Source of the DNA: Nitrosopumilaceae archaeon
GTDB taxonomy: Archaea > Thermoproteota > Nitrososphaeria > Nitrososphaerales > Nitrosopumilaceae
DNA: 64,000 nt
NCBI GenBank assembly: GCA_965200155.1
Contig: CBDATR010000024.1
Span: forward strand, 224,001-288,000
Direction: 5' to 3'
The notes beneath the pieces were generated by a model. It worked only from the letters and a program-made list of their open reading frames with translations. It had not been told where the DNA came from and made no database searches. Both the position numbers and the translations under genes were made by a program. This document shows, piece after piece, positions 4,649 to 61,926 of this stretch (positions within the stretch are counted from its first letter, which is position 1; the number at the start of each line of letters is the position of its first letter).

Positions 4649-5415
4649 AACGCATTCACCAGTTCATCCACACTTCCTTTAATGTTGTCCTTTGCCATAA
4701 TGCTACTGCCCACAAGAAAGGCCCGGGCCCCACACTCCCATAGGCGCCGTATGTCATGCGGCGTTGATATACCGCTCTCTGATATAATGATACGGGCATC
4801 CCCGTATCCTGTCAGTACCTCACATGTTGTATCAAGGGATATCTCCAGGGTATCAAGATTGCGGTTGTTAACACCGATTATGTCACATCCAGTGAACAGT
4901 GCCCTATCCAGCTCCGCCCTACTATGTACCTCCAGCAATACCTGTATGCCGTATTGATGTGCTGCATCTATGAACTGGTCCATATTCGTGGCATAGCCTG
5001 CATCAAAGACTGCCTGTATCAGCAGTATGCAGTCTGCCCCCATCCTGTGCGCCGCATGTACCTGTGCATGATCCACAATGATATCTTTCATAAGAACAGG
5101 GACCGGCACCTCCCGGCGCACTCTCATTAAATATTCCGGCGAGCCACCAAACATGTATGGTTGCGTAAGTACCGACAGGGCGGCAGCGCCACCGGCAACC
5201 ATGGCCCCAGCCACCGTCTCCGGCTCTATCATGTCATGTATGATACCCCGTGACGGCGAAGCAAATTTCACTTCAGATATGATGGGCACAGTCCTGCCTC
5301 GCAGGGCCCCCACAAAATCGCGGCCCCCCGGCACAGATTCCTGTATGTTGTATGTACCCTCCCCGATGGCACGGCGAGAGTTGTCCGCAAGTTGGCGAAG
5401 AATACCGCCTCTCAT
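4645..5415 (-). CDS. trpC: indole-3-glycerol phosphate synthase
   Basis: [27 protein letters not shown]. Confidence 0.97.
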
Positions 5416-8696: not shown

Positions 8697-9667
8697 TGTA
8701 ATGTATGAAAAGTCGGTCCGCTAGTCATTGGCATCCAGCTCCATCCATTTTGCATCATTTGCCCTAATTGTCTGGGTCGCCTTTTTATTCCTGAAGCGGC
8801 GTTTCGCCGTTATCTATCCAGTGAGAAGTGCAATCTTCTCTCATTGTAGTAGTCTAAATAATCCTGGAGACTGTCATAATGCCATATCTCATTGGACTCT
8901 TAAATAAGAGTCCCCTCGTCCTCAATCATTCCATGGAAGCGCTTCAGTTTGCCATTTGTCTGCGGGTGGTATGGTCTGGAATTGATTAGTATGATTCTTG
9001 ATCCAGCAGTTCTTCCTCGAATAGTGTTGGTTTCCAGTTCTTTTTGCCCTTTTATTGTCCTATGAAACACGCGCCGTTATACGAGATGCAGGGGCGCCGA
9101 ATCGTTTCATTGCCGATCTCAGTAGAGTGGCGTTCTCTGAGGTTGTATGCTAGAATAGTGCCGCCCCGACTATACACCTGGATGCATCATCTATGAGATT
9201 CAGTCCCTCCTGAAGCGCTCATCTTTCATGGCATGCCAGTGCCACATTGCATTGGAATATTTATGCTCATAGCGTACCCACTCTGACTTTGCAGGTGATG
9301 AGACTGCCGTACCGTTCTTTTTCATTATGCAATATACTGCGCGATATGTATCATGTCTCAGTCTCTTTGCAATACGTACTACTCCGGCTGGATCCTTGCT
9401 GTATGCTTCAGTTACCATTCGTATCTGGGTGGCGGTGATTGGTATCATAGGCCTGCCCATCTTGAGTCATTCCCGTCCTCTGGTTCACAATCTTCGTACG
9501 TGTCTTGTTTCAGGTCTTGAGCTATGTTGGTGGCGGCAACACCTCTTGTCTTGCTGAATCGCTTCGTGATTCTCTTGATTCCTCTGTTATTCTCTTTATC
9601 ATCTGGCAATGAAATAGTCAGCTACTGTACGCCGGATCCTAAGCGGACTTACTTTTCGTACTATTGA
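8697..9667 (-). mobile_element. IS481-like element copy 1, frameshifted transposase
   Basis: Imperfect TIRs GTACGAAAAGTAAGTCCGCT / GTATGAAAAGTCGGTCCGCT; integrase-core fragments (WVRYEHKYSNAMWH, DDASR, PYHPQTNGKL, YYNERRLH); near-identical copies at 21259, 28878 and 35925. Confidence 0.85.
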
Positions 9668-13508: not shown

Positions 13509-13873
13509 GTGCTATGATGCTCGCCTGTCTTTGTGTGTGTGCGGTTACCTTTCTTTGGGATCTGGTCCATAATCTTCGTACATGTCTTGAACTAATGCTT
13601 GGGCCCTGGGCTATTTGTGACGGCAGCGCCCTGCGACGCACGTCGCGCCCTCTCCTTCCGCGCATCATAATGCTTGGGCCCTGGGCTATTTGTGACGGCA
13701 GCGCCCGGTGGCCGCGCCGTTAAAGCGACATACTGGATTCCAATGCTTGGGCCCTGGGCTATTTGTGACGGCAGCGCCTCTTTCTGTCGCGATTCCTCTC
13801 TTTACCATGTCGCTTGTGCAGCCTGAACTACTGTGCGCCGGATCCTGAGCGGAATTACTTTTCGTACTATTGA
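13509..13873 (-). mobile_element. diverged IS481-like 5' fragment carrying a CRISPR-like insertion array
   Basis: Ends in TTACTTTTCGTACTATTGA like the other copies; HTH-coding segment ALPSQIAQGPSISSRHVRRLW. Confidence 0.7.
13594..13778. CRISPR. CRISPR-like mini-array: three identical 37-bp repeats with unique 38- and 36-bp spacers; non-canonical, repeat derived from IS sequence
   Basis: AATGCTTGGGCCCTGGGCTATTTGTGACGGCAGCGCC at 13594, 13669 and 13742. The repeat structure is certain; the CRISPR interpretation is inference and no cas gene is in the window. Confidence 0.5.
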
Positions 13874-21258: not shown

Positions 21259-22308
21259 TCAATAGTACGAAAAGTAAGTCTGCTTAGGATCCGGCGTACA
21301 GTAGCTGACTATTTCATTGCACAAGCCATATGGTAAAGAGGATAACAGAGGAATCAAGAGAATCGCGAAGCGATTCAGCAAGACAAGAGGTGTTGCCGCA
21401 ACCAACATAGCTCAAGACCTGAAACAAGACACGTACGAAGATTGTGAACCAGAGGACGGGAATGACTCAAGATGGGCAGGCCTATGATACCAATCACCGC
21501 CACCCAGATACGAATGGTAACTGAAGCATACAGCAAGGATCCAGCCGGAGTAGTACGTATTGCAAAGAGACTGAGACATGATACATATCGCGCAGTATAT
21601 CGCATAATGAAAAAGAACGGTACGGCAGTCTCATCACCTGCAAAGTCAGAGTGGGTACGCTATGAGCATAAATATTCCAATGCAATGTGGCACTGGCATG
21701 TCATGAAAAGATGAGCGCTTCAGTGGGGACTGAATCTCATAGATGATGCATCTCATTATTGCGATATTATATTTAACGCGCATTTTACGCTTCAGGGGGG
21801 ACTGAATCTCATAGATGATGCATCCAGGTGTATAGTCGGGGCGGCACTATTCTAGCATACAACCTCAGAGAACGCCACTCTACTGAGATTGGCAATGAAA
21901 CGATTCGGCGCCCCTGCATCTCGTATAACGGCGCGTGTTTCATAGGACAATAAAAGGGCAAAAAGAACTGGAAACCAACACTATTCGAGGAAGAACTGCT
22001 GGATCAAGAATCATACTAATCAATTCCAGACCATACCACCCGCAGACAAATGGCAAACTGAAGCGCTTCCATGGAATGATTGAGGACGAGGGGACTCTTA
22101 TTTAAGAGTCCAATGAGATATGGCATTATGACAGTCTCCAGGATTATTTAGACTACTACAATGAGAGAAGATTGCACTTCTCACTGGATAGATAACGGCG
22201 AAACGCCGCTTCAGGAATAAAAAGGCGACCCAGACAATTAGGGCAAATGATGCAAAATGGATGGAGCGGGATGCCAATGACTAGCGGACCGACTTTTCAT
22301 ACATTACA
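21259..22308 (+). mobile_element. IS481-like element copy 2
   Basis: Same TIRs and sequence as 8697-9667, plus an extra 72 bp at 21716-21824. Confidence 0.87.
21716..21824. repeat. 37-bp duplication flanking a unique 35-bp insert
   Basis: CGCTTCAG(T/G)GGGGACTGAATCTCATAGATGATGCATC at 21716 and 21788; present once in the three sibling IS copies. Confidence 0.92.
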
Positions 22309-22724
22309 ATAATTTTAGACTGTTCCAGAAGTGGCGCATCTCTTCTTTCAAGAATCCTGATCAGCTTACCGTTCGCGCCTATAATCATGGCTAGGCTGTC
22401 CGGCAGTTTCTGGATGTGCCATCCGGCCGTTATTGGACAAATTAGTATTTATGCTTACGGTTATACTCTTTCTTTGTGCAAGCTAGACACTTCTTTGATG
22501 ATTCTATCTCTTCATCCTTCTTCTTGCGCGTAGCCTCTAACCCTGCATACTGAGCTTTTTGCATCTTGATGAGCGCATCGTTCTCCTTGGATGTTTCTCT
22601 TTATCTCATCCATAACTTTGGCATATTCCTCGCGTAGTATCTTGGCTACCGGGTCTTCCATCTGATTGCATTTACTTAATCAGGATGATGTTTAGTGAGT
22701 GTGTTGGGCGACCTAAACGGTTAC
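22309..22724 (-). mobile_element. 5' remnant of an IS66-type family 2 element, truncated by IS481-like copy 2
   Basis: TIR GTAACCGTTTAGGTC at 22724-22710, followed by a decayed Lys/Glu-rich coiled-coil-like frame. Confidence 0.6.
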
Positions 22725-25746: not shown

Positions 25747-25795
25747 GTATTATTATTAGAGACCATGGTTTTAAAAATGTTATTAGAGTTTACAG

Positions 25796-25887
25796 GTATG
25801 AGTTCACGTCTTCCGGAATCTTGTGCACAAATCACATTAACTGTCGCGATCAGTTATGCGTAAATTTAGACACAGGTGAACTCACAC
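25796..25887 (+). mobile_element. MITE family 1 (92 bp)
   Basis: TIR GTATGAGTTCAC; 8-bp TSD GTTTACAG. Confidence 0.95.
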
Positions 25888-26046
25888 GTTTACAGTGCTA
25901 CCGGATCAAGAAATCCAGCGTGCGCAGGCAATGACACCACACAATAATTACATTAGTTGATAAACTAAATTTGAAAAGCCACAATATAATAAAAAATGAT
26001 AACAAACATGTTTTGCGTTGAACATTATGCAAATAGGTCTGCAAAG

Positions 26047-27741
26047 GTATGAGTTCACGTGTTTTGATCACATAATAATATAGAATACATCCCAGTTTTT
26101 TTAATTATAACTGCATTCTGGCAGCAACCTCGTTCATTACAGAAAGGCCCTGAGCCCTCCATGTCTGAACACATGATACGAATGTGGACATGCGGCGCAT
26201 TGCCCTTTCGCCACCCTTTATCTGGCCACTAATCTTGCGGAATACCACTGCGTATCGCAAAGCCTGCTCCGCTGGATTGTTGGTGGGCTCTACACTGTCA
26301 TATTCTAAGAATACGAACATGCCGGGTATGGCCTTATTCAATCCTTTTACCTTCTTTTGTAGTTCAGTATCATCAACATCACAGTATTGATGCAGAATGG
26401 ATTCTGCTCCTGTCTCAAATGAGTGTCGTAATTGCGCGGACGGCCCGCAGTGATTCAGGGATTCCCGTGCGCTCCGGAACAATCCTTTCAGGTCGTTGTC
26501 AAGTTTGATCCGGGCGTCCTGAGCACCGGGATCGATATAGAATCCTGCATGTAATGCCTGGGTATCGCGCAATAAATGCGCCCAACACAACTGGTGCTTC
26601 CCACCGTCATCAAACCGGCGGTACACAACGTACCTGTCCGTTACTATCGCTCCCTGGTAACCGTTCAGGTATTTGTTCACTACATTTGAACTCCTACTTT
26701 TGTCATATATGGACATCATCCACTCTTCGGCTCGCATCCCCCATACCCAGCCACGCCTACCCGCCAGTGATATACCAGTTTCGTCCACATGAATGCTGGG
26801 TGATTTTATTATATTCTCATGAATTGTTTCCATAAATGATTCACATGCATCGGCGGCCCTGGCAATTATGTTGTTTACTGCACCCACCGATATATTTAGG
26901 CCGAAGAGATCCCTCGAAATTACAGGTATGCGTTTTATTGGAATCTTTTCCGCACGCAATGCAGTGATGGCACCGCATAATTGAACCCCAAAACTACCAC
27001 TCTTTGGGACGCCCGCTGCTGGGGCCAGTTGTTTTTTGCCGCACCCACACGCAGCCATTTCTATCACATGAAGGGTCTCCTCTATTTTGGCTGGTATTAA
27101 TTCCGTTATGTGTCGTTGTTTCCAACCAATTTTTGTCATTATATTGCCGCACTCACATATTGGTGTGTACTCAAAGGTGTGATGCACTACTCTGCCGGGG
27201 TTGTGGGAACGGGAAACCCCCTTGTGTCCCTTTTGAGCGCCAGCCTTTTTGGCTGATTTAGTACTGGCTTCTTTCTGTTGCTTATTATCTCCCTGTTTTC
27301 GCTTCTGCTCCTCCTGTTTTCGCTTCTTGTACTGGAGGGATTGAAGGGATGGTGGCGAGTGAGCATTCTCATAATATTTAAGTCGCGTTGTGATTACCGC
27401 AATTTTCCTGTCTTTTTCTACTAATTCCTCTTTCAATTCACTTACATAATTCCTAATAATTTGGAAATCTTGTGTGAGATTTCGTATTTCTTTTATGGTG
27501 TGTGACATATATGCTTCCAATACTCTCACACGTTCCTTGTAATGTGCAAGATCTTTCTTGTAATCCTCAATATCTTTCTTGATAGACGCAAGGGTATCCT
27601 GAAGAAGTTTATTTTCCAGTTCCAATTCCTTATAGGACCGGCGTCTTCTCATTAGATTCTTATTGCAAATTTGGTATTTAAGTAAAATATTGTCATACCA
27701 ATCTATATCTTAGTGAATGATCAAAACACGTGAACTCATAC
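26047..27741 (-). mobile_element. complete IS66-family element (single ORF, ISBst12-group-like)
   Basis: TIR GTATGAGTTCACGTGTTTTGATCA at both ends; 8-bp TSD CTGCAAAG. Confidence 0.95.
26105..27652 (-). CDS. IS66 family DDE transposase, intact
   Basis: Coiled coil, SPPS, GAQKGHKG, CECG, HVDETG, TDRY, QLCWAHLLRD, TNNPAEQALR. Confidence 0.95.
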   Translation of the reverse strand: MRRRRSYKELELENKLLQDTLASIKKDIEDYKKDLAHYKERVRVLEAYMSHTIKEIRNLTQDFQIIRNYVSELKEELVEKDRKIAVITTRLKYYENAHSPPSLQSLQYKKRKQEEQKRKQGDNKQQKEASTKSAKKAGAQKGHKGVSRSHNPGRVVHHTFEYTPICECGNIMTKIGWKQRHITELIPAKIEETLHVIEMAACGCGKKQLAPAAGVPKSGSFGVQLCGAITALRAEKIPIKRIPVISRDLFGLNISVGAVNNIIARAADACESFMETIHENIIKSPSIHVDETGISLAGRRGWVWGMRAEEWMMSIYDKSRSSNVVNKYLNGYQGAIVTDRYVVYRRFDDGGKHQLCWAHLLRDTQALHAGFYIDPGAQDARIKLDNDLKGLFRSARESLNHCGPSAQLRHSFETGAESILHQYCDVDDTELQKKVKGLNKAIPGMFVFLEYDSVEPTNNPAEQALRYAVVFRKISGQIKGGERAMRRMSTFVSCVQTWRAQGLSVMNEVAARMQL

Positions 27742-28166
27742 CTGCAAAGTAACTAAGTTCAAAATGATCATGCACAAAATTCATTGCTATCATGTATTCC
27801 CTGACCTTTATGCATAATCTCCATTATCATATCCATAACTAAATTATTTTATTATAATAATTTCCCAAATTTTTGTATCGAATAATCCACTGTAGTACAA
27901 ATGACATATGCAAATACATGCATAGATAAACTCACAAATTCAAACATAAACAAATGCATATTAATTTAAAATTGTAGGAAAATTAGCATTTCTACATATT
28001 TTATTGTACACTAAAAATTTAACATGTAAACAAATCTAAATTTGTACACATAGAATTAATTTCGTGTAAACATATACGCAATTGTGTTCTACAAATTTAG
28101 AATTTAAACATGCATAGAGTACGCATTCAACTAGAATTAAATATACCAGCCAATACCACAAAAAAT

Positions 28167-28424
28167 ATGGAAATACACGTATACGACACGTATGTACGAG
28201 CAGCCGATGGCCACACAATGCATTTTGATGTTATTACTGGAGAGAAGGATCACGACAAAGCCATAGAATTTGGCAAAGAGTGGTTGGTATCAATAGGAGA
28301 AGGCGATGCAGTTATCACTACCAAAGAATGCCAATTCTGCCACTCTCAGGGTGCGCCAAAAGAGGTAGAAGAATCTATACGGGAACACGGATACTACATA
28401 CAGAAGATGCAAGGTTGCCCTTAG
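28167..28424 (+). CDS. DUF2024-like small protein
   Basis: MEIHVYDTYV..MHFDV..CQFCHSQ..GYYI. Confidence 0.8.
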   Translation: MEIHVYDTYVRAADGHTMHFDVITGEKDHDKAIEFGKEWLVSIGEGDAVITTKECQFCHSQGAPKEVEESIREHGYYIQKMQGCP

Positions 28425-28490
28425 TTGTAATTTTATGTTTTTTATGTAAACGATTTACATATCAATGATCAACTGTTTGGTAGCGCGATT

Positions 28491-28582
28491 GTATGAGTTC
28501 ACGTCTTCCGGAATCTTGTGCACAAATCACATTAACTGTCGCGATCAGTTGTGCGTAAATTTAGACACAGGTGAACTCATAC
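28491..28582 (+). mobile_element. MITE family 1 (92 bp)
   Basis: TIRs; TSD GCGCGATT. Confidence 0.95.
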
Positions 28583-28700
28583 GCGCGATTCACCATCAAT
28601 TCTCAAATAGCCTGTGTATATTGTTCAATACATGTAGATGGTCTGGACCCCATAGAATTGAGAATAGATCTCAATGCACATTTTTTAGATTCAAGAGAGC

Positions 28701-28877
28701 ATGGTTGACAAAAAGCACCAATGAAGTCTGGAAGAGAAGGTCCGGATTATTTTAGGGACATTAGACTCGGCAGCAGTCACCGCAGAGATCTGCAGGCGAC
28801 ATTACATATCGCCCCTCACACTATACATGTGGAGGTAAAGATTCCCAAAGGCCGGTTCTGAGGGATTGTACAGAAAC
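28701..28877 (+). pseudogene. IS3-type OrfA (HTH) remnant, truncated by the IS481-like copy
   Basis: SLEEKVRIILGTLDSAAVTAEICRRHYISPLTLYMWR with in-frame stops. Confidence 0.6.
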
Positions 28878-29841
28878 TCAATAGTACGAAAAGTAAGTCC
28901 GCTCAGGATCCGGCGTACAGTAGCTGACTATTTCATTGCACAAGCCATATGGTAAAGAGAATAACAGAGGAATCAAGACAAAAGAGGCGTTGCCACAACC
29001 AACATAGCTCAAGACCTGAAACAAGACACGTACGAAGATTGTGAACCAGAGAACGGGAACGACTCGAGTAAAGATGGGCAGGCCCATGATACCAATCACC
29101 GCCACCCAGATACGAATGGTAACTGAAACATACGGCAAGGATCCCGCCGGAGTAGTACGTATTGCAAAGAGGCTTTAGACAGAATTACAATATATCGCGC
29201 AGTATATCGCATAATGAAAAAGAACGGTACGGCAGGATCATCACCTGCAAAGTCAGAGTGGGTACGCTATGAGCGTAAATATTCCAATGCAATGTGGCAC
29301 TGGCATGTAATGAAAGATGAGCGCTTCAGGGGACTGAATCTCATAGATGATGCATCCAGGTGCATCGTCGGGGCGGCACTATTCTAGCATACAACCTCAG
29401 AGAACGCCACTCTACTGAGATTGGCAATGAAACGATTCGGCGACCCTGCATCTTGGATAACGGCGCGTGTTTCGTAGGACAATAAAAGGGAAAAAAGAAC
29501 TGGAAACCCACTATTCTAGGAAGAACTGCTGGATCAAGACATCATACTAATCAATTCCAGACCACATCACCCGCAGACAAATGGCAAACTGGAGCGCTTC
29601 CATGGAATGATTGAGGACGAGGGGACTCTTATTTAAGAGTCCAATGAGATATGACATCATGACAGTCTCCGGGATTATGTTGACTACTACAATGAGAGAA
29701 GGTTGCACTTCTCACTGGATATAGATGACGGCGAAACACCACTCCAGGAATAAAAAGGCGACCTAGACAATTAGTGCAAATGATGCAAAATGGATGGAGC
29801 GGGATGCCAATGACTAGCGGACCGACTTTTCATACATTACA
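28878..29841 (+). mobile_element. IS481-like element copy 3
   Basis: TCAATAGTACGAAAAGT...ACTTTTCATACATTACA. Confidence 0.87.
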
Positions 29842-29865
29842 TACAACGCCACAATGAGTAAAGAC

Positions 29866-29873
29866 TTATAAAG
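29866..29873 (+). promoter_or_regulatory. putative TATA box of radA
   Basis: TTATAAAG about 22-29 bp before the ATG, preceded by a purine-rich BRE-like sequence. Confidence 0.45.
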
Positions 29874-29894
29874 TAATGGTACGGTATTTGACCT

Positions 29895-30890
29895 ATGGAA
29901 AATATACGACTTGACAGCCTAGAAGGTGTCGGACCAGTAACTACAAGAAAACTGTCCGATGCCGGTGTCCACAACATAATGGACCTCATAGTACGTGGAC
30001 CGGTAGAAATTGCAGACATAGCAGGTATGGAAAAAGATACCGCCGAGAAGATCGTGAACAAGGCTCGCCAGCACTTATCAGAGGGCGGCATGCTTGCCAA
30101 AGAATTCGTCAGTGCAGCAGACATCTATAAGCGGCGCCAAGAGATAGGCCGCATAAGTACAGGTACTGAGTGCTTGAATAAACTCTTTGAGGGAGGTATT
30201 GAAACGCAGGCACTTACAGAAGTATACGGTGAATTTGGATGTGGCAAAACACAATTTTGTCACACACTATGCGTCATGGTACAAAAGTCCATAGAGGAAG
30301 GTGGTCTTGAAGGAGGAGTTTTGTACATAGACTCTGAGAACACATTTCGTCCAGAAAGGATAGTCTCCATAGCTCAGGCAAACGGTATGGATCCCCAAAG
30401 GGTCTTGGATAACATCACGGTAGCCCGAGCATATAACAGCTCTCACCAAGTACTCATATTGGAAGAGGCCGGTACGGTAATTCAGGAAAGTAACGTAAAG
30501 TTGCTTGTTGCAGACTCTGCTGTCGGCCTATTTCGATCAGAGTACCTAGGTCGCGGGACACTATCCGAGAGACAGCAAAAACTAAACCACTTTGTACACC
30601 TGTTATCACGTATTGCCGAGACATACAACTGCGCCGCAGTTGCGACAAATCAGGTCATGTCCTCACCGGACGTATTCTTTGGAGATCCAACAAAGCCCAT
30701 AGGCGGCAATGTTGTAGCACACACATCCACTTATCGTGTGTACTTTAAAAAATCAGGCAAGAAAAGAATAGCACGTATGGTAGACAGTCCACACCATCCA
30801 GAAGAAGAAGTTATCTTCGCCATAAGTGAGGCGGGAGTAGTAGATCCCGAGGAACCAAAGAGGACTAAAAAATCCAAAGATGCAGCATAG
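29895..30890 (+). CDS. radA: DNA repair/recombination protein RadA
   Basis: N-terminal HhH domain, GEFGCGKTQ, YIDSENTFRPER, GRGTLSERQQ, GGNVVAH. Confidence 0.97.
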   Translation: MENIRLDSLEGVGPVTTRKLSDAGVHNIMDLIVRGPVEIADIAGMEKDTAEKIVNKARQHLSEGGMLAKEFVSAADIYKRRQEIGRISTGTECLNKLFEGGIETQALTEVYGEFGCGKTQFCHTLCVMVQKSIEEGGLEGGVLYIDSENTFRPERIVSIAQANGMDPQRVLDNITVARAYNSSHQVLILEEAGTVIQESNVKLLVADSAVGLFRSEYLGRGTLSERQQKLNHFVHLLSRIAETYNCAAVATNQVMSSPDVFFGDPTKPIGGNVVAHTSTYRVYFKKSGKKRIARMVDSPHHPEEEVIFAISEAGVVDPEEPKRTKKSKDAA

Positions 30891-30947
30891 AATACTTCGT
30901 ACTTGTTTTTACATTGAGCATGTTGCAGTTTATTAGGTACAATTTTC

Positions 30948-31039
30948 GTATGAGTTCACCTGTGTCTAAATTTACGCATAACTGATCGCGACAGTTAATG
31001 TGATTTGTGCATAAGATTCCGGAAGACGTGAACTCATAC
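30948..31039 (-). mobile_element. MITE family 1 (92 bp)
   Basis: TIRs; TSD CAATTTTC. Confidence 0.95.
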
Positions 31040-31147
31040 CAATTTTCAATGATAGTGCACAGTAACCGGTATCTAAAATCATGCCAATTGTCACAATCAG
31101 TCATGTGTGGATTTAGGCACAAACGAATGCGTATAACGTCTGTAGTT

Positions 31148-31239
31148 GTATGAGTTCACGTCTTCCGGAATCTTATGCACAAATCACATTAACTGTCGCG
31201 ATCAGTTATGCGTAAATTTAGACACAGGTGAACTCATAC
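31148..31239 (+). mobile_element. MITE family 1 (92 bp)
   Basis: TIRs; TSD CTGTAGTT. Confidence 0.95.
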
Positions 31240-31645
31240 CTGTAGTTTACTGTGCCGGAGTTGAACTTGCCTGCTTATGTATAGATCCCACCATAGTCTT
31301 TGCAGGGTATAGGACCGTACTTTTATAGAACCACTACTAGAGTAGAATCCCCATATGATGGATGACATAACCCGGACCGTCATTATACCGTTGAAGAACA
31401 ATAAGGAATTCTCCCGGCGCGCAAAGATATTTGATCACACGTCCGATTATATCCATAACAGAGCGGTGTCCGAGATCAGCCTCGGCGGTTACTACATACC
31501 CAGAACCACTCTTGAATTGAAGCATGATCCGGCCAAGGTCAAAAACGGTTCAAGATCACCATACGGCCTAAAGAAGGGCGATCCACTCTACGTGAATCAG
31601 CTACCGCGTTCTAGAACGGTTATAAAAATGGCTTGTTCCTAGAAT

Positions 31646-31787
31646 GTAACCGTTTAGGTCACCCCCGGGCAACTGTTCAAAACACACCGCTAACATGTCC
31701 GATCTTACTTTTTCTATCATGCTGCCTTACATATGTCCACGAATTTACCATCTAGGTGTTGATCTTTAACTCGACCTAAACGGTTAC
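31646..31787. mobile_element. MITE family 2 (142 bp)
   Basis: Perfect TIR GTAACCGTTTAGGTC; TSD CCTAGAAT; absent from the sibling tnpB copies. Confidence 0.93.
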
Positions 31788-32514
31788 CCTAGAATTGACA
31801 AAGTGGTGCGCAGAATACGATTGGTTGCGCCAGTTACCAGCTAACTATGGCCGGGTACAATACTACAGGCGTCTGTCGCGTGGAGACGCACGTACGAGGA
31901 TTGTTCTGATTATATTCCGCACCGGCGCGACAATGAAAGAATCATACTGTCTTGTGTTGCGCCACCAATTAGACGTGGTGAGTTCGAGTTAGGCTTGTGC
32001 GGCCTTGGTATCGCGAGAACCATGAACAATCTATCATTCCCGGGACATGCGCTCATTCAAAATCTTTGAGCGCACCAATAAAAGAACGAGGCCGGGAGAA
32101 CGCAAATTTGAGATTCATATCAACATACGAGTGAAACAACCAAAACATGTCAAGACCGATGTCATTCGCGGTGGCTGTCACGGCAGATACCAATGATAGA
32201 ACAGCAGTACATAACATGAGGCATCGCGGGATATTACGGGAGAACCGTTACCTCCAGAGCATTAAATCTCAAAAGGGTAAGCGCAGGAAGCGAGAGATCG
32301 AGAAGAAAATCATTCAATTACTACAGAAACATAGCTAACGACTCCATGAATAGAATAGTCCATGTCATCACCAAAGGTGTAGACAAGGTGGTCGTCGAAA
32401 ACCTGTCGGTTACAGGAATGACTGCTCACGGGGAGAACCGCAAGAGAACAATGAATCGAATGATGTGCGATAACCGCGCTGGCACATTCTTGCACAAGCT
32501 GAAGCAGAAATGTG

Positions 32515-32606
32515 GTATGAGTTCACGTCTTCCGGAATCTTATGCACAAATCACATTAACTGTCGCGATCAGTTATGCGTAAATTTAGACACAGGTGAAC
32601 TCATAC
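32515..32606 (+). mobile_element. MITE family 1 (92 bp) inside tnpB
   Basis: TIRs; TSD GAAATGTG. Confidence 0.95.
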
Positions 32607-32932
32607 GAAATGTGAGATACTGGGAGTGGAACGGGAGGTCATACGTGCGCAGTATAACAGCCAGACCTGTCATGTGGGCACCATTCCAGAGAACCACGTT
32701 TAACTAGGGATGTATTCAGATGCACCCGATGTAACCAGGAGAGTGACGCGGACATTAATGCCGCGTACAGTAACCGGTTTCCTTGCACGGGGTGGCAGAG
32801 CGTGTCGTCCGGAGGCGTCAAGGCGGGAATAATGGTGACAAGCCAAAACCATGTACCGTTCAGGAACGAGGGTAGCGCGCGGCGAGCCAACTAGGCGCCA
32901 TAAAAATCATAGTCAAAGACTTATGGTGACTG

Positions 32933-33721
32933 CTATAATACGTGTGTACTTGACTGATGTCGACGTGAAGATCTGACAATGGCTGCAGCTGCGGCCCCGG
33001 CATATATACCGCCATCTATATTCACAACAGTAAGACCCAAGGCACAACTCTGTAACATGGAACCCAGTGCAGATACTCCTCCCGCACCATAGCCATACCC
33101 CACAGATACAGGTATGCCTATTACTGGAATACTGAGCATGGACGTCGCTACTGTAGCCAGTGCACCCTCCATTCCGGCCGCAACCACGACACAGTCTGCA
33201 TCTTTATCCACAATCTCCTGGAGGGCCGATAGTGTTCGGTGAAGTCCTGCCACACCTACATCATATCTACACAATACATCACAACCCATAGCAACACACA
33301 TGAGTCTCACTTCCTCAGCCACAGGTATATCCGAGGTTCCGCCGGTAAGAATTCCTATTAACCCACCGCAAGTGGCAGGCTTGTCATTATATACCAGTAT
33401 GGTGGAGCAGTTGCGCCCGGTCTCCACACATAACCCCAAACTCATGGCAAACTCTACTACATCATCGTAATGATCTTTGCAAATTCTAGATACTACCAGA
33501 GGATCATCACGTGGATATTCCTCCATTATTGACTTGATATCAGCCAACTGCTTGGATTCAGCAAAAAGTACCTCCGGGATATTTCTACGACGGGCCCTAC
33601 CCAGATCTAACCTAGCCATGTTCTTTATGTTCTCAATAGAATGTAATGACAGCATCTTTTTTGCTTCTTCAACGGTAACATTGCCAGACTGGAGTGATCT
33701 GAGTATATGATCCAGTTCCAA
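32933..33721 (-). CDS. larB: nickel-pincer cofactor biosynthesis protein LarB (AIR carboxylase-like)
   Basis: GTSDIPVAEE, DVGVAGLHR, AGMEGAL, PVSVGYG, VVNIDGG. Confidence 0.92.
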   Translation of the reverse strand: MELDHILRSLQSGNVTVEEAKKMLSLHSIENIKNMARLDLGRARRRNIPEVLFAESKQLADIKSIMEEYPRDDPLVVSRICKDHYDDVVEFAMSLGLCVETGRNCSTILVYNDKPATCGGLIGILTGGTSDIPVAEEVRLMCVAMGCDVLCRYDVGVAGLHRTLSALQEIVDKDADCVVVAAGMEGALATVATSMLSIPVIGIPVSVGYGYGAGGVSALGSMLQSCALGLTVVNIDGGIYAGAAAAAIVRSSRRHQSSTHVL

Positions 33722-33723
33722 GG

Positions 33724-34638
33724 TTATAACGACAGTGTGGACAGAGCAGATTTGATGTTTGAGGCACCTGTATCAAACATCTTGCGTTCATCCTCGTCGA
33801 GATCAAGTTCCACTATTTTTTCAACGCCCTGTCGTCCAATGACAGCAGGAACGCCAATACAGATATCACCATGACCATACTCGCCATCCAAGTATGTGGA
33901 TACCGGTATCACAGAATGTTGATCTTTCATTATTGCATTAACTATTGTTGCCACCGCGTTGCCAGGGGCATGTACTGTGGCCCCCTTCAGTTTGATCACC
34001 TGTGCAGCCACTCCCCTAGTACTTGCTACCAAACTGTTCATCTCATCTTTGGATAATAAGTCACTAATGGGAATGCCAGAGACCGTACTGAAACGCGGCA
34101 ATGGCAACATTCCTTCACCGTGCTCACCTATCACCAAAGCACGTATGTCATTTCTGGAAAATCCTACCGACTCGTGTATGAATTGACGAAATCTGGAGAG
34201 ATCAAGCATGTTTCCCATACCAACTATGCGATTTCGGTTAAACCCCGAAACCTTGTACGCTACATATGCCATAGGATCCAGAGGATTTGTAACGGGTACA
34301 AGTATGGAATCTGGCGCATTTTTAGCCACCTCCCCCACCACACTCTTTACTATTGTCGTGTTTATCTTTAGTAAGTCCATGCGTGTCATGCCAGGTTTTC
34401 TTCCGGAACCGGCAACAACAACCACTACATCAGAGCCCTTCATATCAGAGTAATCGTTCGAGCCATATACCTCCACGTCTATTCCAAGCTCAGAGAGAGC
34501 ATGGTTGATGTCCATGGCTTCACCCTGAGGCAGTCCTTCAACCACGTCCAGTAAAAGGATTTTTGAGTCTGCTCCTCTCAGGGCTGAGAATAGGGCCGCA
34601 TCACCACCCACCTTGCCAGATCCTATTATGGTTAGCAT
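33724..34638 (-). CDS. mdh: malate dehydrogenase, LDH-like
   Basis: [26 protein letters not shown]. Confidence 0.95.
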
Positions 34639-34715
34639 GAATCATGGTGAAAAAGAATATGTAATTAAATCTAATGAAGACGAAAATAATCGCTTTGGTC
34701 GCTCCAAGCCACAGT

Positions 34716-35924
34716 TATAGCGGTCACCATAAGTCTTTGAGAACATGGCACCTCGTTCCTGGACAGTACCTGGCTTTGGCTTGTCACCATTATTCCCGCC
34801 CTGACGCCTCCGGTTGGTCGGGAAATGGTGCCCCACCCCCGGACGACACGCTCTGCCACTCCTACAGGGAAACCGGTTACTAAACGCCGCGTTGATATCG
34901 GCGTGAAATTCCTGGTTACATATTGAATGTGTCCCTAGTTGATCGTGACTTGTTGCCAACGTGTCCACACACGTGATAGGTCTGGCTCGTTGGGCGGGTA
35001 AACCGCCCCCTCGTGTATCTCGCTGGCACAGCCACCAATTCAATCCCCAGTGCCTCGCACTTTTGTACTACTTTCCGGCGGAACTAGCCTACCCGGTTCT
35101 CACGCATGGAGCGGTTCATTGTTCTTTTCCGGTTCCCGCCATGACTGGTCATTCGCTTTCGGTGATAAATCCTCTAGTATTACCTTGTCCACACCTTCGG
35201 TGACCGCGCGGACTACTCTATTCATGGAGTCGTTCGCGATATTATTCGCTTTCTGTCGTAGTTGAATGATTTTCTTCTCAATCTTTCGCTTCCTGCGCTT
35301 ACCTTTTCGCGTTCTAATACTCTGGAGTGCGCTAATCTCCCGTAATATGGAACAATGTCTCATGTTGGGAATCATCGTTCTGCCATTCGTGTCAGCTGTT
35401 ACATCTAGATGTTTCCTGCCGACACCCACGCCGCGAACAACGCCGGTCGATGGTTTCTCCCGTATATTGATGTGAATCTCGAATTGACGCTCCCTACTAT
35501 TGGTTACTTGTTCCACTAGAATGAGCGTATGTCCCAAGAATGATCGATTGGTTTGGTTGTTCTCACCACACCAAAACCGCACAGGTTCAACTCTAACTCA
35601 CCGCGGCGGATTGGTGGTCTTACACATGATAGTATGATCTGTCACGCCGGTGTGGTATGTAATTAGAATGATCCTCGTACGCGCGCCTGCACGCGACAGA
35701 CGCCTGTAGTATGGCACCCCAGCCATAGTTAGCTTGTAACTCACGCACCCATTCAATATCACGGCGCCACTTTGTCAATTCCAGGAACAAACAATTCTTG
35801 TTGGACGGGTAAACCGTCCCCTGATAGCCGTTCTAGAACGCGGTAGCTGATTCACGTATAATGAAACGCCCTTCATTAGGCCATATGGTGATCTTGAACT
35901 GTTTTTGACCTTGGCCGGATCATG
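34716..35924 (-). mobile_element. tnpB: tnpB pseudo-element B, 5'-truncated by IS481-like copy 4
   Basis: GVGVGRKHL, VILEDL, HADINAA; near-identical to 46783-48230. Confidence 0.85.
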
Positions 35925-36861
35925 TCAATAGTACGAAAAGTAAGTCCGCTCAGGATCCGGCGTACAGTAGCTGACTATTTCATTGCACAAGCCATATGGT
36001 AAAGAGAATAACAGAGGAATCAAGACAAAAGAGGCGTTGCCACAACCAACATAGCTCAAGACCTGAAACAAGACACGTACGAAGATTGTGAACCAGAGAA
36101 CGGGAACGACTCGAGTAAAGATGGGCAGGCCCATGATACCAATCACCGCCACCCAGATACGAATGGTAACTGAAACATACGGCAAGGATCCCGCCGGAGT
36201 AGTACGTATTGCAAAGAGGCTTTAGACAGAATTACAATATATCGCGCAGTATATCGCATAATGAAAAAGAACGGTACGGCAGGATCATCACCTGCAAAGT
36301 CAGAGTGGGTACGCTATGAGCGTAAATATTCCAATGCAATGTGGCACTGGCATGTAATGAAAGATGAGCGCTTCAGGGGACTGAATCTCATAGATGATGC
36401 ATCCAGGTGCATCGTCGGGGCGGCACTATTCTAGCATACAACCTCAGAGAACGCCACTCTACTGAGATTGGCAATGAAACGATTCGGTGCCCCTGCATCT
36501 TGGATAACGGCGCGTGTTTCGTAGGACAATAAAAGGGAAAAAAGAACTGGAAACCCACTATTCTAGGAAGAACTGCTGGATCAAGACATCATACTAATCA
36601 ATTCCAGGCCATACCACCCGCAGACAAATGGCAAACTGGAGCGCTTCCATGGAATGATTGAGGACGAGATTTGGCATTATGACAGTCTCCGGGATTATGT
36701 TGACTACTACAATGAGAGAAGATTGCACTTCTCACTGGATATAGATAACGGCGAAACACCACTCCAGGAATAAAAAGGCGACCCAGACAATTAGGACAAA
36801 TGATGAAAAATGGATGGAGCGAGATACCAATGACTAGCGGACCGACTTTTCATATATTACA
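35925..36861 (+). mobile_element. IS481-like element copy 4
   Basis: Same TIRs; lacks the GGGACTCTTA hairpin insert found in copies 1-3. Confidence 0.87.
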
Positions 36862-37269
36862 TGTCATAGTGATTACTAACTTGGATCCAAGCATTAACAT
36901 CTGAGATTTTTTAAACAAACTTTATGGTATTCACCGACAATGCCAAGTACGTCCAGCGGAAGGCTATTTGGCTTTGATCATGCGTGGAATTGAAAAGGCC
37001 AACCATAAAGGAGGGTGCTCCCTACCAGTATGCTGTGGGCATGTTACATGACACTGAGAATGGCATTAGGTATGAGATACAGGCAGGTATCCGGATTCCT
37101 TGCAGGACTACTAGAAGGGCACCAAACCCCGCACTACTCCACAATATACAGACACGGAAAAGATCTTGACATCGACAAGGGGAATGACATGATTGTCGGC
37201 ACAGACAAAAAGCTGACGAGAGCCATGATTGTTGACTCGGCCGGCCTTGAATCGTGGCGAGTGGATTAG

Positions 37270-37361
37270 GTATGAGTTCACGTCTTCCGGAATCTTGTAC
37301 ACAAATCACATTAACTGTCGCGATCAGTTGTGCGTAAATTTAGACACAGGTGAACTCATAC
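37270..37361 (+). mobile_element. MITE family 1 (92 bp)
   Basis: TIRs; TSD TGGATTAG. Confidence 0.95.
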
Positions 37362-37548
37362 TGGATTAGTGCCAAATGGAAAAAGAAGCGCGGATTCATC
37401 AGTGCTCGCGGACTAGGAGAGCATATGCATTTACGGTTACCGGCGAGTGGGTTGGGAATACGCGCATGTTAATCAATGCAGTACTGGGCTCGTATGCAGA
37501 AGAGCCACAACTGGACAGGAAGCACACCCGGGAATTGGAAAGTTCCGG

Positions 37549-37640
37549 GTATGAGTTCACGTCTTCCGGAATCTTATACACAAATCACATTAACTGTCGC
37601 GATCAGTTATGCGTAAATTTAGACACAGGTGAACTCATAC
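37549..37640 (+). mobile_element. MITE family 1 (92 bp)
   Basis: TIRs; TSD AGTTCCGG. Confidence 0.95.
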
Positions 37641-51938: not shown

Positions 51939-52045
51939 GAGCCCGCAGGGAATTCTGCTGGACCCAATCGCACCCAGGTAACCATTCTTGGAATGATGCG
52001 CCAATACAGGAGCCCGCAGGGAATTCTGCTGGACCCAATCGCACC
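51939..52045. repeat. 36-bp perfect duplication flanking a unique 35-bp insert
   Basis: GAGCCCGCAGGGAATTCTGCTGGACCCAATCGCACC at 51939 and 52010. Confidence 0.92.
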
Positions 52046-56920: not shown

Positions 56921-59774
56921 TCTGATAGTTCGGGGAGCCCGGCACCATAACCTGAAAAACATAGACGTGGATTTGCCCAAAAATTCTCTCGTAGTTATCA
57001 GTGGCCTCTCGGGGTCCGGCAAGTCCACGCTGGCCTTCGACACCATATACGCGGAAGGTCAGAGGAGGTATGTGGAATCGCTCTCCGCATACGCACGCCA
57101 GTTTTTGGACATAATGGATAAACCGGATGTGGACTCCATAGAAGGACTCTCGCCAGCAATATCGATACAGCAAAAGACCACCAGCAAGAACCCGCGCTCC
57201 ACGATAGGCACAACCACAGAGATATACGACTATCTCCGGCTACTCTATTCCAGGGTGGGCACCCCCTACTGTCATAAATGTGAGCGACCCATATCCAGCC
57301 AGTCTGTAGAAACCATATGCGATACCGTAATACGGGAGTTTGACGGCATGGATATACTGGTTCTGGCGCCACTCATAAAAAGAAAGAAGGGCATTCACAA
57401 CAGGATCATAGCAAAGGTAAGCGCCGACGGCTACTCGCGGATTCGAGTGGACAAAACGGTACATAACCTGGATGACGAGATTCCTCCCCTGGACAGGCAG
57501 CAGTGGCACGACATTGAGATAGTCATTGACAGGATGCCCGCCACCCAATCACAGCGTACAAGGTTATTTGAGGCAATACAGACAGCGGTGGACGCAACGG
57601 AGGGTGAAGTCATGATATCCGCAGAGGGCAAGGAGAGCACACATTCCCAGAAGAATGCATGTCCTTATTGTGGTGTCAATATAGGAGAGATGGAGCCGCG
57701 AACATTCTCGTTTAACTCGCCATTTGGAATGTGCAAGGAATGCTCTGGCATGGGCGAGGAGTTTAGGCTGGATCCGGATCTGGTCATACCGGACAAGACA
57801 AAATCGATAATCGATGGCGCCATACAGCCATGGGGACCAAACATACCCCCGCCAATAATGGACATGATTACTCTCATAGCAAGAAAGTACAAGTTTAGGC
57901 TAGACACACCCATTGCGGATCTGAGCGAGAAGCAGATGGATGCGCTGGTATACGGACACATTCATTTACGCAAGGGTACCCCAGATCTTAGTGTTGGCGG
58001 TGAGAACGAAGCCAAGTATTTGTACCTAAAATCGCGCATGGGCACCGCAGACTTTAGGCTTAGTGTTGATGGGGTAATAGACCAGATTATGAGTGCTATG
58101 CCATTCATGGAGTTGGGGGATATGGAATCTGTCAAGGCCATGTTATGGAGGAACATGCCATGCTCAGTCTGCAAGGGCAGAAAGTTGCGCCCGGAGTCAC
58201 TCAACGTGCGCGTAGGGGGCAAGGGCATAATGGATGTGTGTAGTATGCCCATAAACCAGTGCATCCGTTTCTTTAAGGACATAGAGCTTGATGATACCGA
58301 GGCATTTATCGCCAGGGATATACTCAAAGAGATAAGGAGTCGCCTGAATTTTTTGAGTAATGTTGGCCTGACATATCTTACGCTTGACAGGAAGAGCGCC
58401 AGCCTGTCAGGGGGCGAGTCGCAGAGGATACGACTAGCGACACAGATAGGATCCAGTCTTACAGGCGTACTTTATGTCCTGGATGAGCCCACCATTGGCC
58501 TGCATCAGCGTGATAACTCCAGACTAATCGATACGCTCAGGTGTTTGAAGGATCTTGGGAATACCGTACTGGTAGTGGAGCATGATGAGGAGGTGATACG
58601 CAGTTCCGACTGGCTGGTGGATTTGGGACCGGCCGCGGGAGTGCACGGAGGGGAGGTGGTCTTTGAGGGAACCATGAAGGATATGACGAAGGACACCAAA
58701 TCTGTAACAGGAGACTATCTAATGGGAAGACGGCACATTACGTTAACGGACAGGGTCAGGAGTAGTGGCAAGTCACTTACCGTACTGGGAGCATCTCAGA
58801 ATAACCTAAAGGATATTGATGTGGAGTTTCCACTAGGGCAGTTTGTATGCGTGACAGGGGTATCCGGGTCGGGCAAATCCACGCTAGTAAATAGTATACT
58901 GCTAGCAGAGTTGCAGCATCGCCTAAGCCGTCCCACCACATGGGCAGGCAGGCACAAAGGCATAGTTGGAACAGAGCACATAGACAAGGTAATAAGTATA
59001 GACCAGTCACCCATAGGAAGGACACCGCGCTCCAATCCGGCCACATACATAGGCGTCTTTAGCCCCATACGGGAGTTATTTGCCAAGACCAGCATGGCCA
59101 AGTCGCGTGGCTATCTCCCAGGACAGTTCTCATTTAATGTGCAGAAGGGCCGGTGTTTTGAGTGCGAGGGCAGCGGACTGCGCCGCATAGAGATGCAGTT
59201 TCTGGCAGATGTCTATGTTAGGTGTAACAAGTGCAAGGGCAAGCGCTTTGACTCCCAGACACTACAGGTACGCTATCGTGGCAAGAACATTCATGACATA
59301 TTGGAGATGACCGTCGATGAGGCACTGGAGTTCTTTGAAAATCACAGGTCCATACATGCAAAAATAAAGACCGTACACGATGTGGGGCTAGGATACATAC
59401 GGCTGGGCCAGCCATCAACCACGCTTTCTGGTGGCGAGGCACAGCGCATAAAATTGTCATCAGAGCTGTCCAAGCGCGACACAGGACGCACACTGTATGT
59501 GCTAGATGAGCCTACCACGGGGCTGCATTTCGCGGATGTGGAAAAGTTGCTCTATGTACTAAACAGGCTGGTAAACCAGGGTAATACCGTAGTGGTCATA
59601 GAGCATAACATGGATGTAATAGCCAACTCGGACTGGGTGATAGATTTGGGGCCGGAAGGCGGAGATGATGGCGGACAGGTGGTGGCAACAGGCACCCCCG
59701 CACATGTAGCCACGACCAATACCTATACAGGACAATATCTAAAGAATATGCAAAAAATTGCTGGACATACGTAG
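56913..59774 (+). CDS. uvrA: excinuclease ABC subunit A
   Basis: Two ABC ATPase modules ([16 protein letters not shown]), LSGGE, zinc fingers. Confidence 0.98.
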
Positions 59775-61806: not shown

Positions 61807-61926
61807 CTGACGAAAAAACACCGTAAAATGAGTAAACATTTCTTTAATTTTGTTACACGGCGCCAAAGAAGGTGATTTTTCACTCGGAAATGACATGTTT
61901 TTCGTAGTTGAAATACATGAATTGTT

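Follow-up and report, generated by a model that had tools for sequence, protein, structure and literature searches.

How did one decayed insertion sequence (IS) come to carry a 37-nucleotide (nt) segment of itself twice, with 35 nt of other sequence between the two copies, when its siblings nearby carry the same segment once and without any insert? The question is raised by positions 21716-21824 of a 64,000-nt stretch of DNA, referred to below as the window, which corresponds to C24:224001-288000 (contig CBDATR010000024.1) of the 2.38-Mb, 51-contig assembly of a Nitrosopumilaceae archaeon; the genome is 87.6% complete, and the assembly encodes archaeal AmoA. As judged from sequence comparisons, the unit at 21716 and its sister units elsewhere in the genome are very likely the products of off-target spacer integration by Cas1-Cas2, known as the neo-CRISPR reaction.

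A direct-repeat search of positions 21400-22200 returned a single family, consisting of the two 37-nt copies R1 and R2 (Table 1), which are 97% identical, differ at one base (T/G, the ninth base) and start 72 nt apart. The actual length of the duplication may be 36 nt instead of 37, with its first base at 21717, and the insert becomes 36 nt long if the ambiguous C at 21788 is counted as part of it. Five occurrences of the 27-nt core of the repeat were found in the window (minus strand 9181-9207; 21726, 21798, 29330 and 36377), while none of 100 shuffles yielded any match. When the four IS copies of the window were aligned, about 72 extra columns appeared in copy 2; copies 1, 3 and 4 contained the segment once and without the insert, and both the insert and the R1/R2 mismatch were confined to copy 2. 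A preliminary description of this DNA had proposed comparing all genomic copies as a check; genome-wide, the site was uninterrupted in 83 of the 113 BLAST pieces of the element. From the siblings and these 83 pieces it follows that the single-copy, insert-free state is ancestral and that the insertion is real in the assembled sequence. The preliminary description had reported a 37-mer occurring twice, with one mismatch, around a 35-nt insert, and empty sites in copies 1, 3 and 4; the coordinates, the insert sequence and the empty sites were all recovered as it had given them.

Table 1. Coordinates of the target copies, the insert, the empty sites and related features; positions are counted from the first nucleotide of the window.
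Feature	Position	Strand	Evidence or detail
R1, left target copy	21716..21752	+	37 nt at longest; direct-repeat search
Spacer-like insert	21753..21787	+	35 nt, 26% G+C; sequence TCATTATTGCGATATTATATTTAACGCGCATTTTA
R2, right target copy	21788..21824	+	1 mismatch to R1
IS copy 2, decayed multi-copy IS-like host element	21259..22400 (limits approximate)	+	repeat families; no long open frame
Empty site, sibling IS copy 1	9171..9207 (approximate)	-	four-copy alignment
Empty site, sibling IS copy 3	29320..29356	+	repeat family, four-copy alignment
Empty site, sibling IS copy 4	36367..36403	+	repeat family, four-copy alignment
Sister event, three 37-nt repeats and two different inserts	13594..13778	+	first insert is a 36/36 copy of C10:225674-225709
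Sister event, 36-nt duplication and 35-nt insert	51939..52045	+	insert matches C35:35832-35864, 33 nt identical
Donor (protospacer) of the ectopic insert at C25:19042	59196..59231	+	36/36 identical

The host element itself is decayed, and the list of its open reading frames (ORFs) held short fragments alone. One fragment of 56 aa gave a weak match to rve_3 (integrase core; E 0.0009, below the Pfam cut-off), and a search for an intact copy of the element recovered flanking genes alone. No inverted pair was found at the insertion region, and hence no terminal inverted repeats; a Rfam scan of the window returned no known RNA family.

The size of the insertion was compared with the CRISPR system of the same genome, which has a single array at C9:71014-92020 with 288 exact repeat cores of 36 invariant columns (ATTTCCGCAGCCTAACGGTTGCGGCCTCATTGAAGG). 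The periods of the array are 73 (101 times), 72 (84), 74 (63), 71 (16) and 75 (15), overall 71-76, and the spacer lengths of 35-39 nt are distributed as 37 (101 times), 36 (84), 38 (63), 35 (16) and 39 (15). Directly upstream of the array lie a Cas4-Cas1 fusion of 549 aa, with Cas_Cas4 at residues 14-194 and Cas_Cas1 at residues 225-503, and a Cas2 of 91 aa. The fusion contains no internal stop, is matched over positions 2-282 of the 283 positions of Pfam Cas_Cas1, and provides the one Cas1 match in the whole genome. Downstream of the array were found Cas3 (helicase 30-385, HD C-terminal at 766-859), Cas_GSU0054 (2e-21) and Cas_GSU0053 (1e-45). A Cas4-Cas1 fusion, a Cas3 with C-terminal HD and the GSU0053 and GSU0054 proteins are what we take to be the markers of type I-G (formerly I-U), and this set is complete here by domain matches. 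An ORF of 319 aa adjoining the array had no Pfam match, and the Cas5-Cas6 part was not identified. When Cas4-Cas1 was used as a query against genome_contigs, seven distant relatives from unrelated phyla were obtained (38-51% identity), and nothing on units of the kind described here.

The agreement between the two rulers is close. At the 21716 site 37 and 35 nt add up to 72, which lies within the repeat-plus-spacer periods of the array; the duplication is 37 nt at most and possibly 36, against a CRISPR repeat of 36 nt, and the insert of 35-36 nt lies within the range of array spacers. A duplication of 36-37 nt together with an insert of 35-38 nt is what this CRISPR system adds to its array with each acquisition. 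Since the ruler is that of the repeat-plus-spacer unit and an intact Cas4-Cas1/Cas2 pair is present, the integrase is most likely the CRISPR adaptation complex.

In the mechanism that we propose, the type I-G Cas4-Cas1/Cas2 would capture a prespacer of about 36 nt, and the two 3' ends of this prespacer would be joined to opposite strands of the chromosome 36-37 bp apart, after which gap repair would duplicate the stretch between the attack points. The attack points would normally be the borders of the leader-proximal CRISPR repeat; here they would have fallen in a decayed IS copy that mimics the repeat ends at a few positions, and the expected product would be a repeat-spacer-repeat in which the "repeat" is host DNA. 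The unit at 21716 does not qualify as a functional array, its repeat being IS sequence unrelated to the true repeat. Since the ectopic units have repeats that bear no relation to the true one, they are probably not processed into CRISPR RNA (crRNA), and such silence would explain the survival of inserts derived from the own genome.

In order to place the 21716 unit among others of its kind, direct repeats lying 40-200 nt apart were scanned for over the whole genome, and pairs of 34-40 nt were counted outside the array. Spacings of 71, 72, 73, 74 and 75 gave 4, 25, 18, 8 and 5 pairs, respectively, while the other 156 spacings together gave 62; the 60 pairs observed at spacings 71-75 compare with 1.99 expected (Poisson p about 1e-65). 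When the limits were widened slightly, to repeats of 33-41 nt and spacings of 70-76, 61 units were obtained, 58 of them with different inserts. Among the 77 pairs at spacings 69-77, which include some tandem repeats, the two copies had no mismatch in 59, one in 14 and two in 4. The targets of the units are mutually unrelated, save for repeated elements that were struck more than once. Two sister events lie in the window itself (Table 1), and the repeats at 13594 and 21716 belong to two separate families, as the preliminary description had maintained. Its further suggestion that one fixed-ruler integrase acts at unrelated sites is supported by the same geometry at 58 independent places with unrelated targets.

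The IS position struck at 21716 was also struck independently in another copy of the element, at C34:19810, with a different insert. In another repeated element, the segment CTTGTAATGTGCAAG...GACGCAAG, both ends of which read CTTG... inward, is a hot spot and was struck at least six times with different inserts (C10:83012, C10:210130, C24:460667, C24:500916, C24:500987, C13:25654 and copies). Tandem amplification, with the same insert present 2-4 times, was seen at C24:382929-383164, C9:44444-44839 and C31:2838-3010; at C24:382929 the same insert occurs three times, and at C9:44444 one insert occurs four times and is followed by a different one, so that mini-arrays of up to six host-derived repeats are found at amplified units. 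One old unit has spread with its IS to several loci. Two inserts lie exactly at the cas1-cas2 junction (C9:70400-70587), where the duplicated 37-nt segment includes the cas1 stop and the cas2 start; cas1 and cas2 are both intact because the duplication gives each gene its own copy of the segment. This segment agrees with the true repeat at 16 of 36 positions and has TTTC and GGTTGCG in register with it; its inserts match C10:291117-291150 (34/34) and C24:421310-421346 (36/37).

Long open frames are absent from the DNA around most units. Among the 28 units that add a multiple of three, 5 are crossed by a frame of at least 200 aa, as is 1 of the 30 others (Fisher p 0.08). These numbers fit scars that survive chiefly in neutral sequence, dead IS copies for example. 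Local clusters of units were also seen, for example at C9:62508/65224/70400, C5:96434/96775 and C43:103915/106025.

To describe the sequence at the attack points, 82 half-sites were collected, read inward, from 41 distinct targets with 36- or 37-nt repeats. Counted from the border, T was present at position 3 in 41 of the 82 half-sites, G or T at position 4 in 62, C at position 5 in 38, G or C at position 11 in 66 and C at position 12 in 39, and these enrichments over genome composition gave binomial p values of 6e-6 to 3e-10. The true repeat reads inward ATTTCCGCAGCC from the leader end and CCTTCAATGAGG from the spacer end, with T3 T4 C5 and S11 S12 at both, so that the pooled target motif T3 K4 C5 S11 S12 is common to both ends of the true repeat. 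Two relatives whose Cas4-Cas1 is orthologous have repeats with the same end sequences. The 21716 site also fits; if its duplication is counted as 36 nt from 21717, the left end reads GCTTCAGTGGGG and the right end GATGCATCATCT, with GCTTC...GG on the left (T3 T4 C5, G11 G12) and GATGC...C on the right. A preference of the integrase for hairpins was also considered and rejected; the mean folding energy was -5.45 for the 41 targets and -5.15 for 2000 random 37-mers (p 0.13).

The inserts were then compared with the rest of the genome. A near full-length match elsewhere was found for 26 of the 58 inserts, with ends coinciding with the insert borders and with differing flanks, and 19 of these 26 are 100% identical to the donor. 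When the 286 array spacers were compared with the chromosome outside the array, no match of this kind was obtained (0 of 286 versus 26 of 58; Fisher p 2.6e-23). The sole exception in the BLAST search of array spacers was C9:75210, which overlaps the ectopic insert at C25:4760 (4797-4831) by 26-28 nt on the opposite strand; the two therefore derive from a single sequence that the genome lacks. This difference in self content is what would be seen if one machine fed both the array and the ectopic sites and selection removed self-targeting spacers only from places where they are expressed as crRNA.

Half of the self donors (13 of 26) lie on contig C10, which makes up 23% of the assembly (binomial p 0.002), at positions ranging from 28 kb to 414 kb; the supply of prespacers may be regionally biased. 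Microhomology of targets with donor flanks was tried as an additional feature and discarded, the donor matches entering the repeats by 29 nt over 38 ends against about 25 by chance (our own estimate).

The 35-nt insert at 21716 is one of the 31-32 ectopic inserts without a donor. It had no match of at least 16 nt in the rest of the 2.38-Mb assembly, the 35-mer had no exact match in viral_contigs, and its 29-nt core had no exact match in metagenome_contigs. The preliminary description had called it a foreign insert; the insertion with target duplication stands, and the foreign origin gained nothing from these three collections, none of which yielded a source. Low G+C content is not peculiar to it, since 15 of the 286 array spacers have 30% G+C or less. 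Over its first 15 nt (21753-21767) the insert is the reverse complement of part of another copy of the same IS family, at C24:472295, about 110 nt upstream of the target position (alignment score 30, against a maximum of 22 in 500 shuffles); the remaining 20 nt were unmatched. A diverged relative of the host IS may have supplied the insert.

In order to see whether such units accompany Cas4-Cas1 in related organisms, the protein was used as a query against 60 other genomes of the family. Near full-length Cas4-Cas1 (56-59% identity) was present in 6 of the 60 relatives, and any match in 19. The relative G061, a single contig of 1.86 Mb with 63% G+C, has a Cas4-Cas1 that is 59% identical and an array in which a related 36-nt repeat occurs 135 times at periods of 71-75. 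Outside this array it contains 27 pairs (34-40 nt) at spacings 70-74, among which there are 25 clean units, 8 of them with self matches. Pairs at spacing 75 were left out for G061, as they come from 25-residue protein repeats; long genes with such 75-nt repeats (e.g. 1604000-1605000 and 1617000-1618300) form a separate peak at this spacing. For the relative G067 no candidate was obtained with the Cas4-Cas1 query, and the first 0.8 of its 1.23 Mb contained no such unit and low-complexity tandem repeats alone. The contrast between one positive and one partial negative genome is suggestive of a tie between the units and Cas4-Cas1. In G061 a local cluster of units was also noted, at 1478675/1479016/1481869, within 3.2 kb. 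The GC skew of G061, computed to place the donors relative to the origin, was uninformative, and a search for empty sites in other species (13593 region) gave weak short matches in 4 of 30 relatives, too divergent to use.

Not all of the observations favour off-target integration by the CRISPR adaptation complex. The insert between 21760 and 21783 was at zero depth in four public runs, which leaves the assembly as the one source of the junction. These four runs held the largest share of the sampled words of the window, and none of 17 runs contained half of them. Contigs from the public runs cover the IS family as short contigs, and one of them shows the empty form; this is expected because the element is multi-copy, and the junction is thereby neither confirmed nor refuted. 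The want of a source for the insert in the genome, viral and metagenome collections counts on the same side. The commonest duplication is 37 nt (30 units) and not 36 nt (19 units), and the commonest period is 72 and not 73; among the units whose borders are settled by the donor, four have a duplication of exactly 36 nt and two of exactly 37. Over their whole length the targets resemble the true repeat at 14.1 of 36 positions, against 13.3 (standard deviation 1.9) for 2000 random sites. No clear protospacer-adjacent motif (PAM) was obtained, TTN lying beside either donor end in 8 of 26 cases where chance would give about 3.6, and the T at -2 in 21 of 52 donor half-flanks is a weak signal; two array-spacer probes had no match in viral_contigs, so that no PAM was derived from the array either. 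In G061 the motif shows S11-S12 alone (each in 30 of 34 half-sites of this 63% G+C genome), and T at position 3 is not enriched there (8 of 34 half-sites). Finally, the control without a Cas4-Cas1 match is one genome, scanned over two-thirds of its length and much richer in A+T (33% G+C).

Some of these points would suit a non-CRISPR process, either another integrase or a repair pathway that adds about 72 nt as a short copied piece with a compensating duplication. Such a process would agree with the many inserts that copy the own genome, with the lack of a clear PAM and with a duplication mode that differs by one from the 36-nt repeat. We nevertheless regard it as improbable, since the unit periods are distributed as in the genome's own array, the target ends share bases with both ends of the true repeat, and one insert overlaps the donor of an array spacer. 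Units of the same geometry are moreover present in the Cas4-Cas1-bearing G061, with none in the scanned part of G067, and the inserts are diverse instead of being one recurring hairpin. No second Cas1 and no casposase were found in this 87.6% complete genome, whose incompleteness leaves room for such a gene.

A mobile element of very small size, or what remains of a larger one, with an unusually long target-site duplication would also leave a duplication flanking an insert and empty sites elsewhere, the classical signature of a transposon. Target-site duplications of IS elements are 2-15 bp and those of casposons about 14-15 bp. The staggered strand transfer followed by gap repair, with a direct duplication as the outcome, is common to such insertions and to the units described here; the units differ in having a duplication of 36-37 bp and, at 21716, a one-off 35-mer without ends of its own. 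The 35-mer is present at one place in the genome, no two of the 58 inserts are alike, terminal inverted repeats were not found, and 26 of the inserts are plain copies of ordinary chromosomal sequence, which together make a mobile element very improbable. An artefact of assembly or of chimeric reads in a repeated element has as little to recommend it. The host IS is present in more than 80 copies, which is error-prone for assemblers, and the insert was uncovered in the four public runs, but an artefact would have had to produce 58 units of one precise geometry in unrelated and often unique sequence, and the same pattern is found in the single-contig genome of G061. The R1/R2 mismatch and the insert are specific to IS copy 2, and an artefact would not choose targets bearing the repeat-end motif. 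A decayed stump of an ordinary CRISPR array acquired earlier, although it would have the same repeat-spacer-repeat form and CRISPR-like sizes, is scarcely credible, as the "repeat" is an internal IS sequence that is single in 83 other stretches and in the three siblings of the window, and the duplication therefore arose in place.

Off-target spacer integration by Cas1-Cas2, the explanation that we prefer, has precedents. In Escherichia coli, neo-CRISPR formation was described as non-canonical spacer integration by over-produced type I-E Cas1-Cas2, with supplied oligonucleotides and as rare events (Nivala, Shipman and Church 2018, through the passages in 10.1101/148544, PMC7054753 and PMC6698737 that bear on it). 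According to the relevant part of 10.1101/148544, it was unclear how common such arrays are, and there was "circumstantial evidence" in two other species. The E. coli events resemble ours in the spacer-sized insert, the repeat-length duplication and the non-CRISPR chromosomal site, and also in that a second spacer at some sites seeds new arrays, as at 13594-13778 and C9:44444 here. They differ in that the present events are natural and archaeal, with 58 units fixed in this genome and 25 in a relative, and would be the work of a type I-G Cas4-Cas1 with a 36-37-bp ruler. In the portion of PMC6698737 drawn on here, Pyrococcus furiosus Cas1 and Cas2 are described as integrating in vitro into non-CRISPR DNA with repeat-like features; the off-target sites there share features of the repeat, as do T3 K4 C5 and S11 S12 here, whereas that work was a plasmid assay of a system with a 30-nt repeat and the present units are in vivo chromosomal scars. 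Ectopic spacer acquisition within arrays, as outlined in PMC7999890 and PMC5338259 for Streptococcus thermophilus, is alike in that a spacer is inserted away from the leader-proximal repeat and unlike in that those events took place inside the array at true repeats, while ours lie in unrelated host sequences. Searches of the full-text literature turned up no natural genome bearing scars of this kind by the dozen, nor any report for archaea or for type I-G, with subscription journals and supplements lying outside this search. The kind of event is already known; the natural scale, the self-derived content and the target motif are noteworthy.

Off-target spacer integration has been known mainly from Cas1-Cas2-over-producing E. 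coli and from test-tube assays, and its role in nature was left open in the part of 10.1101/148544 consulted here. Dozens of natural events with exact borders would provide an in vivo target motif for a type I-G integrase, and the self content of 26 of 58 inserts versus 0 of 286 array spacers bears on how much self DNA is sampled in naive adaptation. The units also show arrays being born and amplified at new sites. They matter for annotation too, since genes are interrupted or extended by them and an annotator may take them for small CRISPR arrays or transposon footprints. The scars amount to about one-fifth of the number of spacers in the true array, both here (58 to 287) and in G061 (25 to 134). 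We lean somewhat toward a broader view, in which adaptation in ammonia-oxidising archaea that have this Cas4-Cas1 family would often misfire into the chromosome. The scars would then form a natural, unselected record of capture, nearly half of it self, and the reaction would act as a steady mutagen that makes in-frame insertions of 24-25 codons and seeds new arrays.

Two further observations were made on the assembly. About two dozen short contigs (C2-C4, C6, C8, C11, C14-C18, C21, C26-C29, C32, C33, C38-C40, C44, C45, C47 and C49) have 35-42% G+C, against 45-52% for the rest of the assembly; C2, C32, C38 and C40 contain tandem repeats alone at the spacings of the units, and no spacer match was listed on any of the low-G+C contigs, which may come from another replicon or organism. 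In the window, a 95-nt repeat was found seven times, at 25793-37640 and at 61924.

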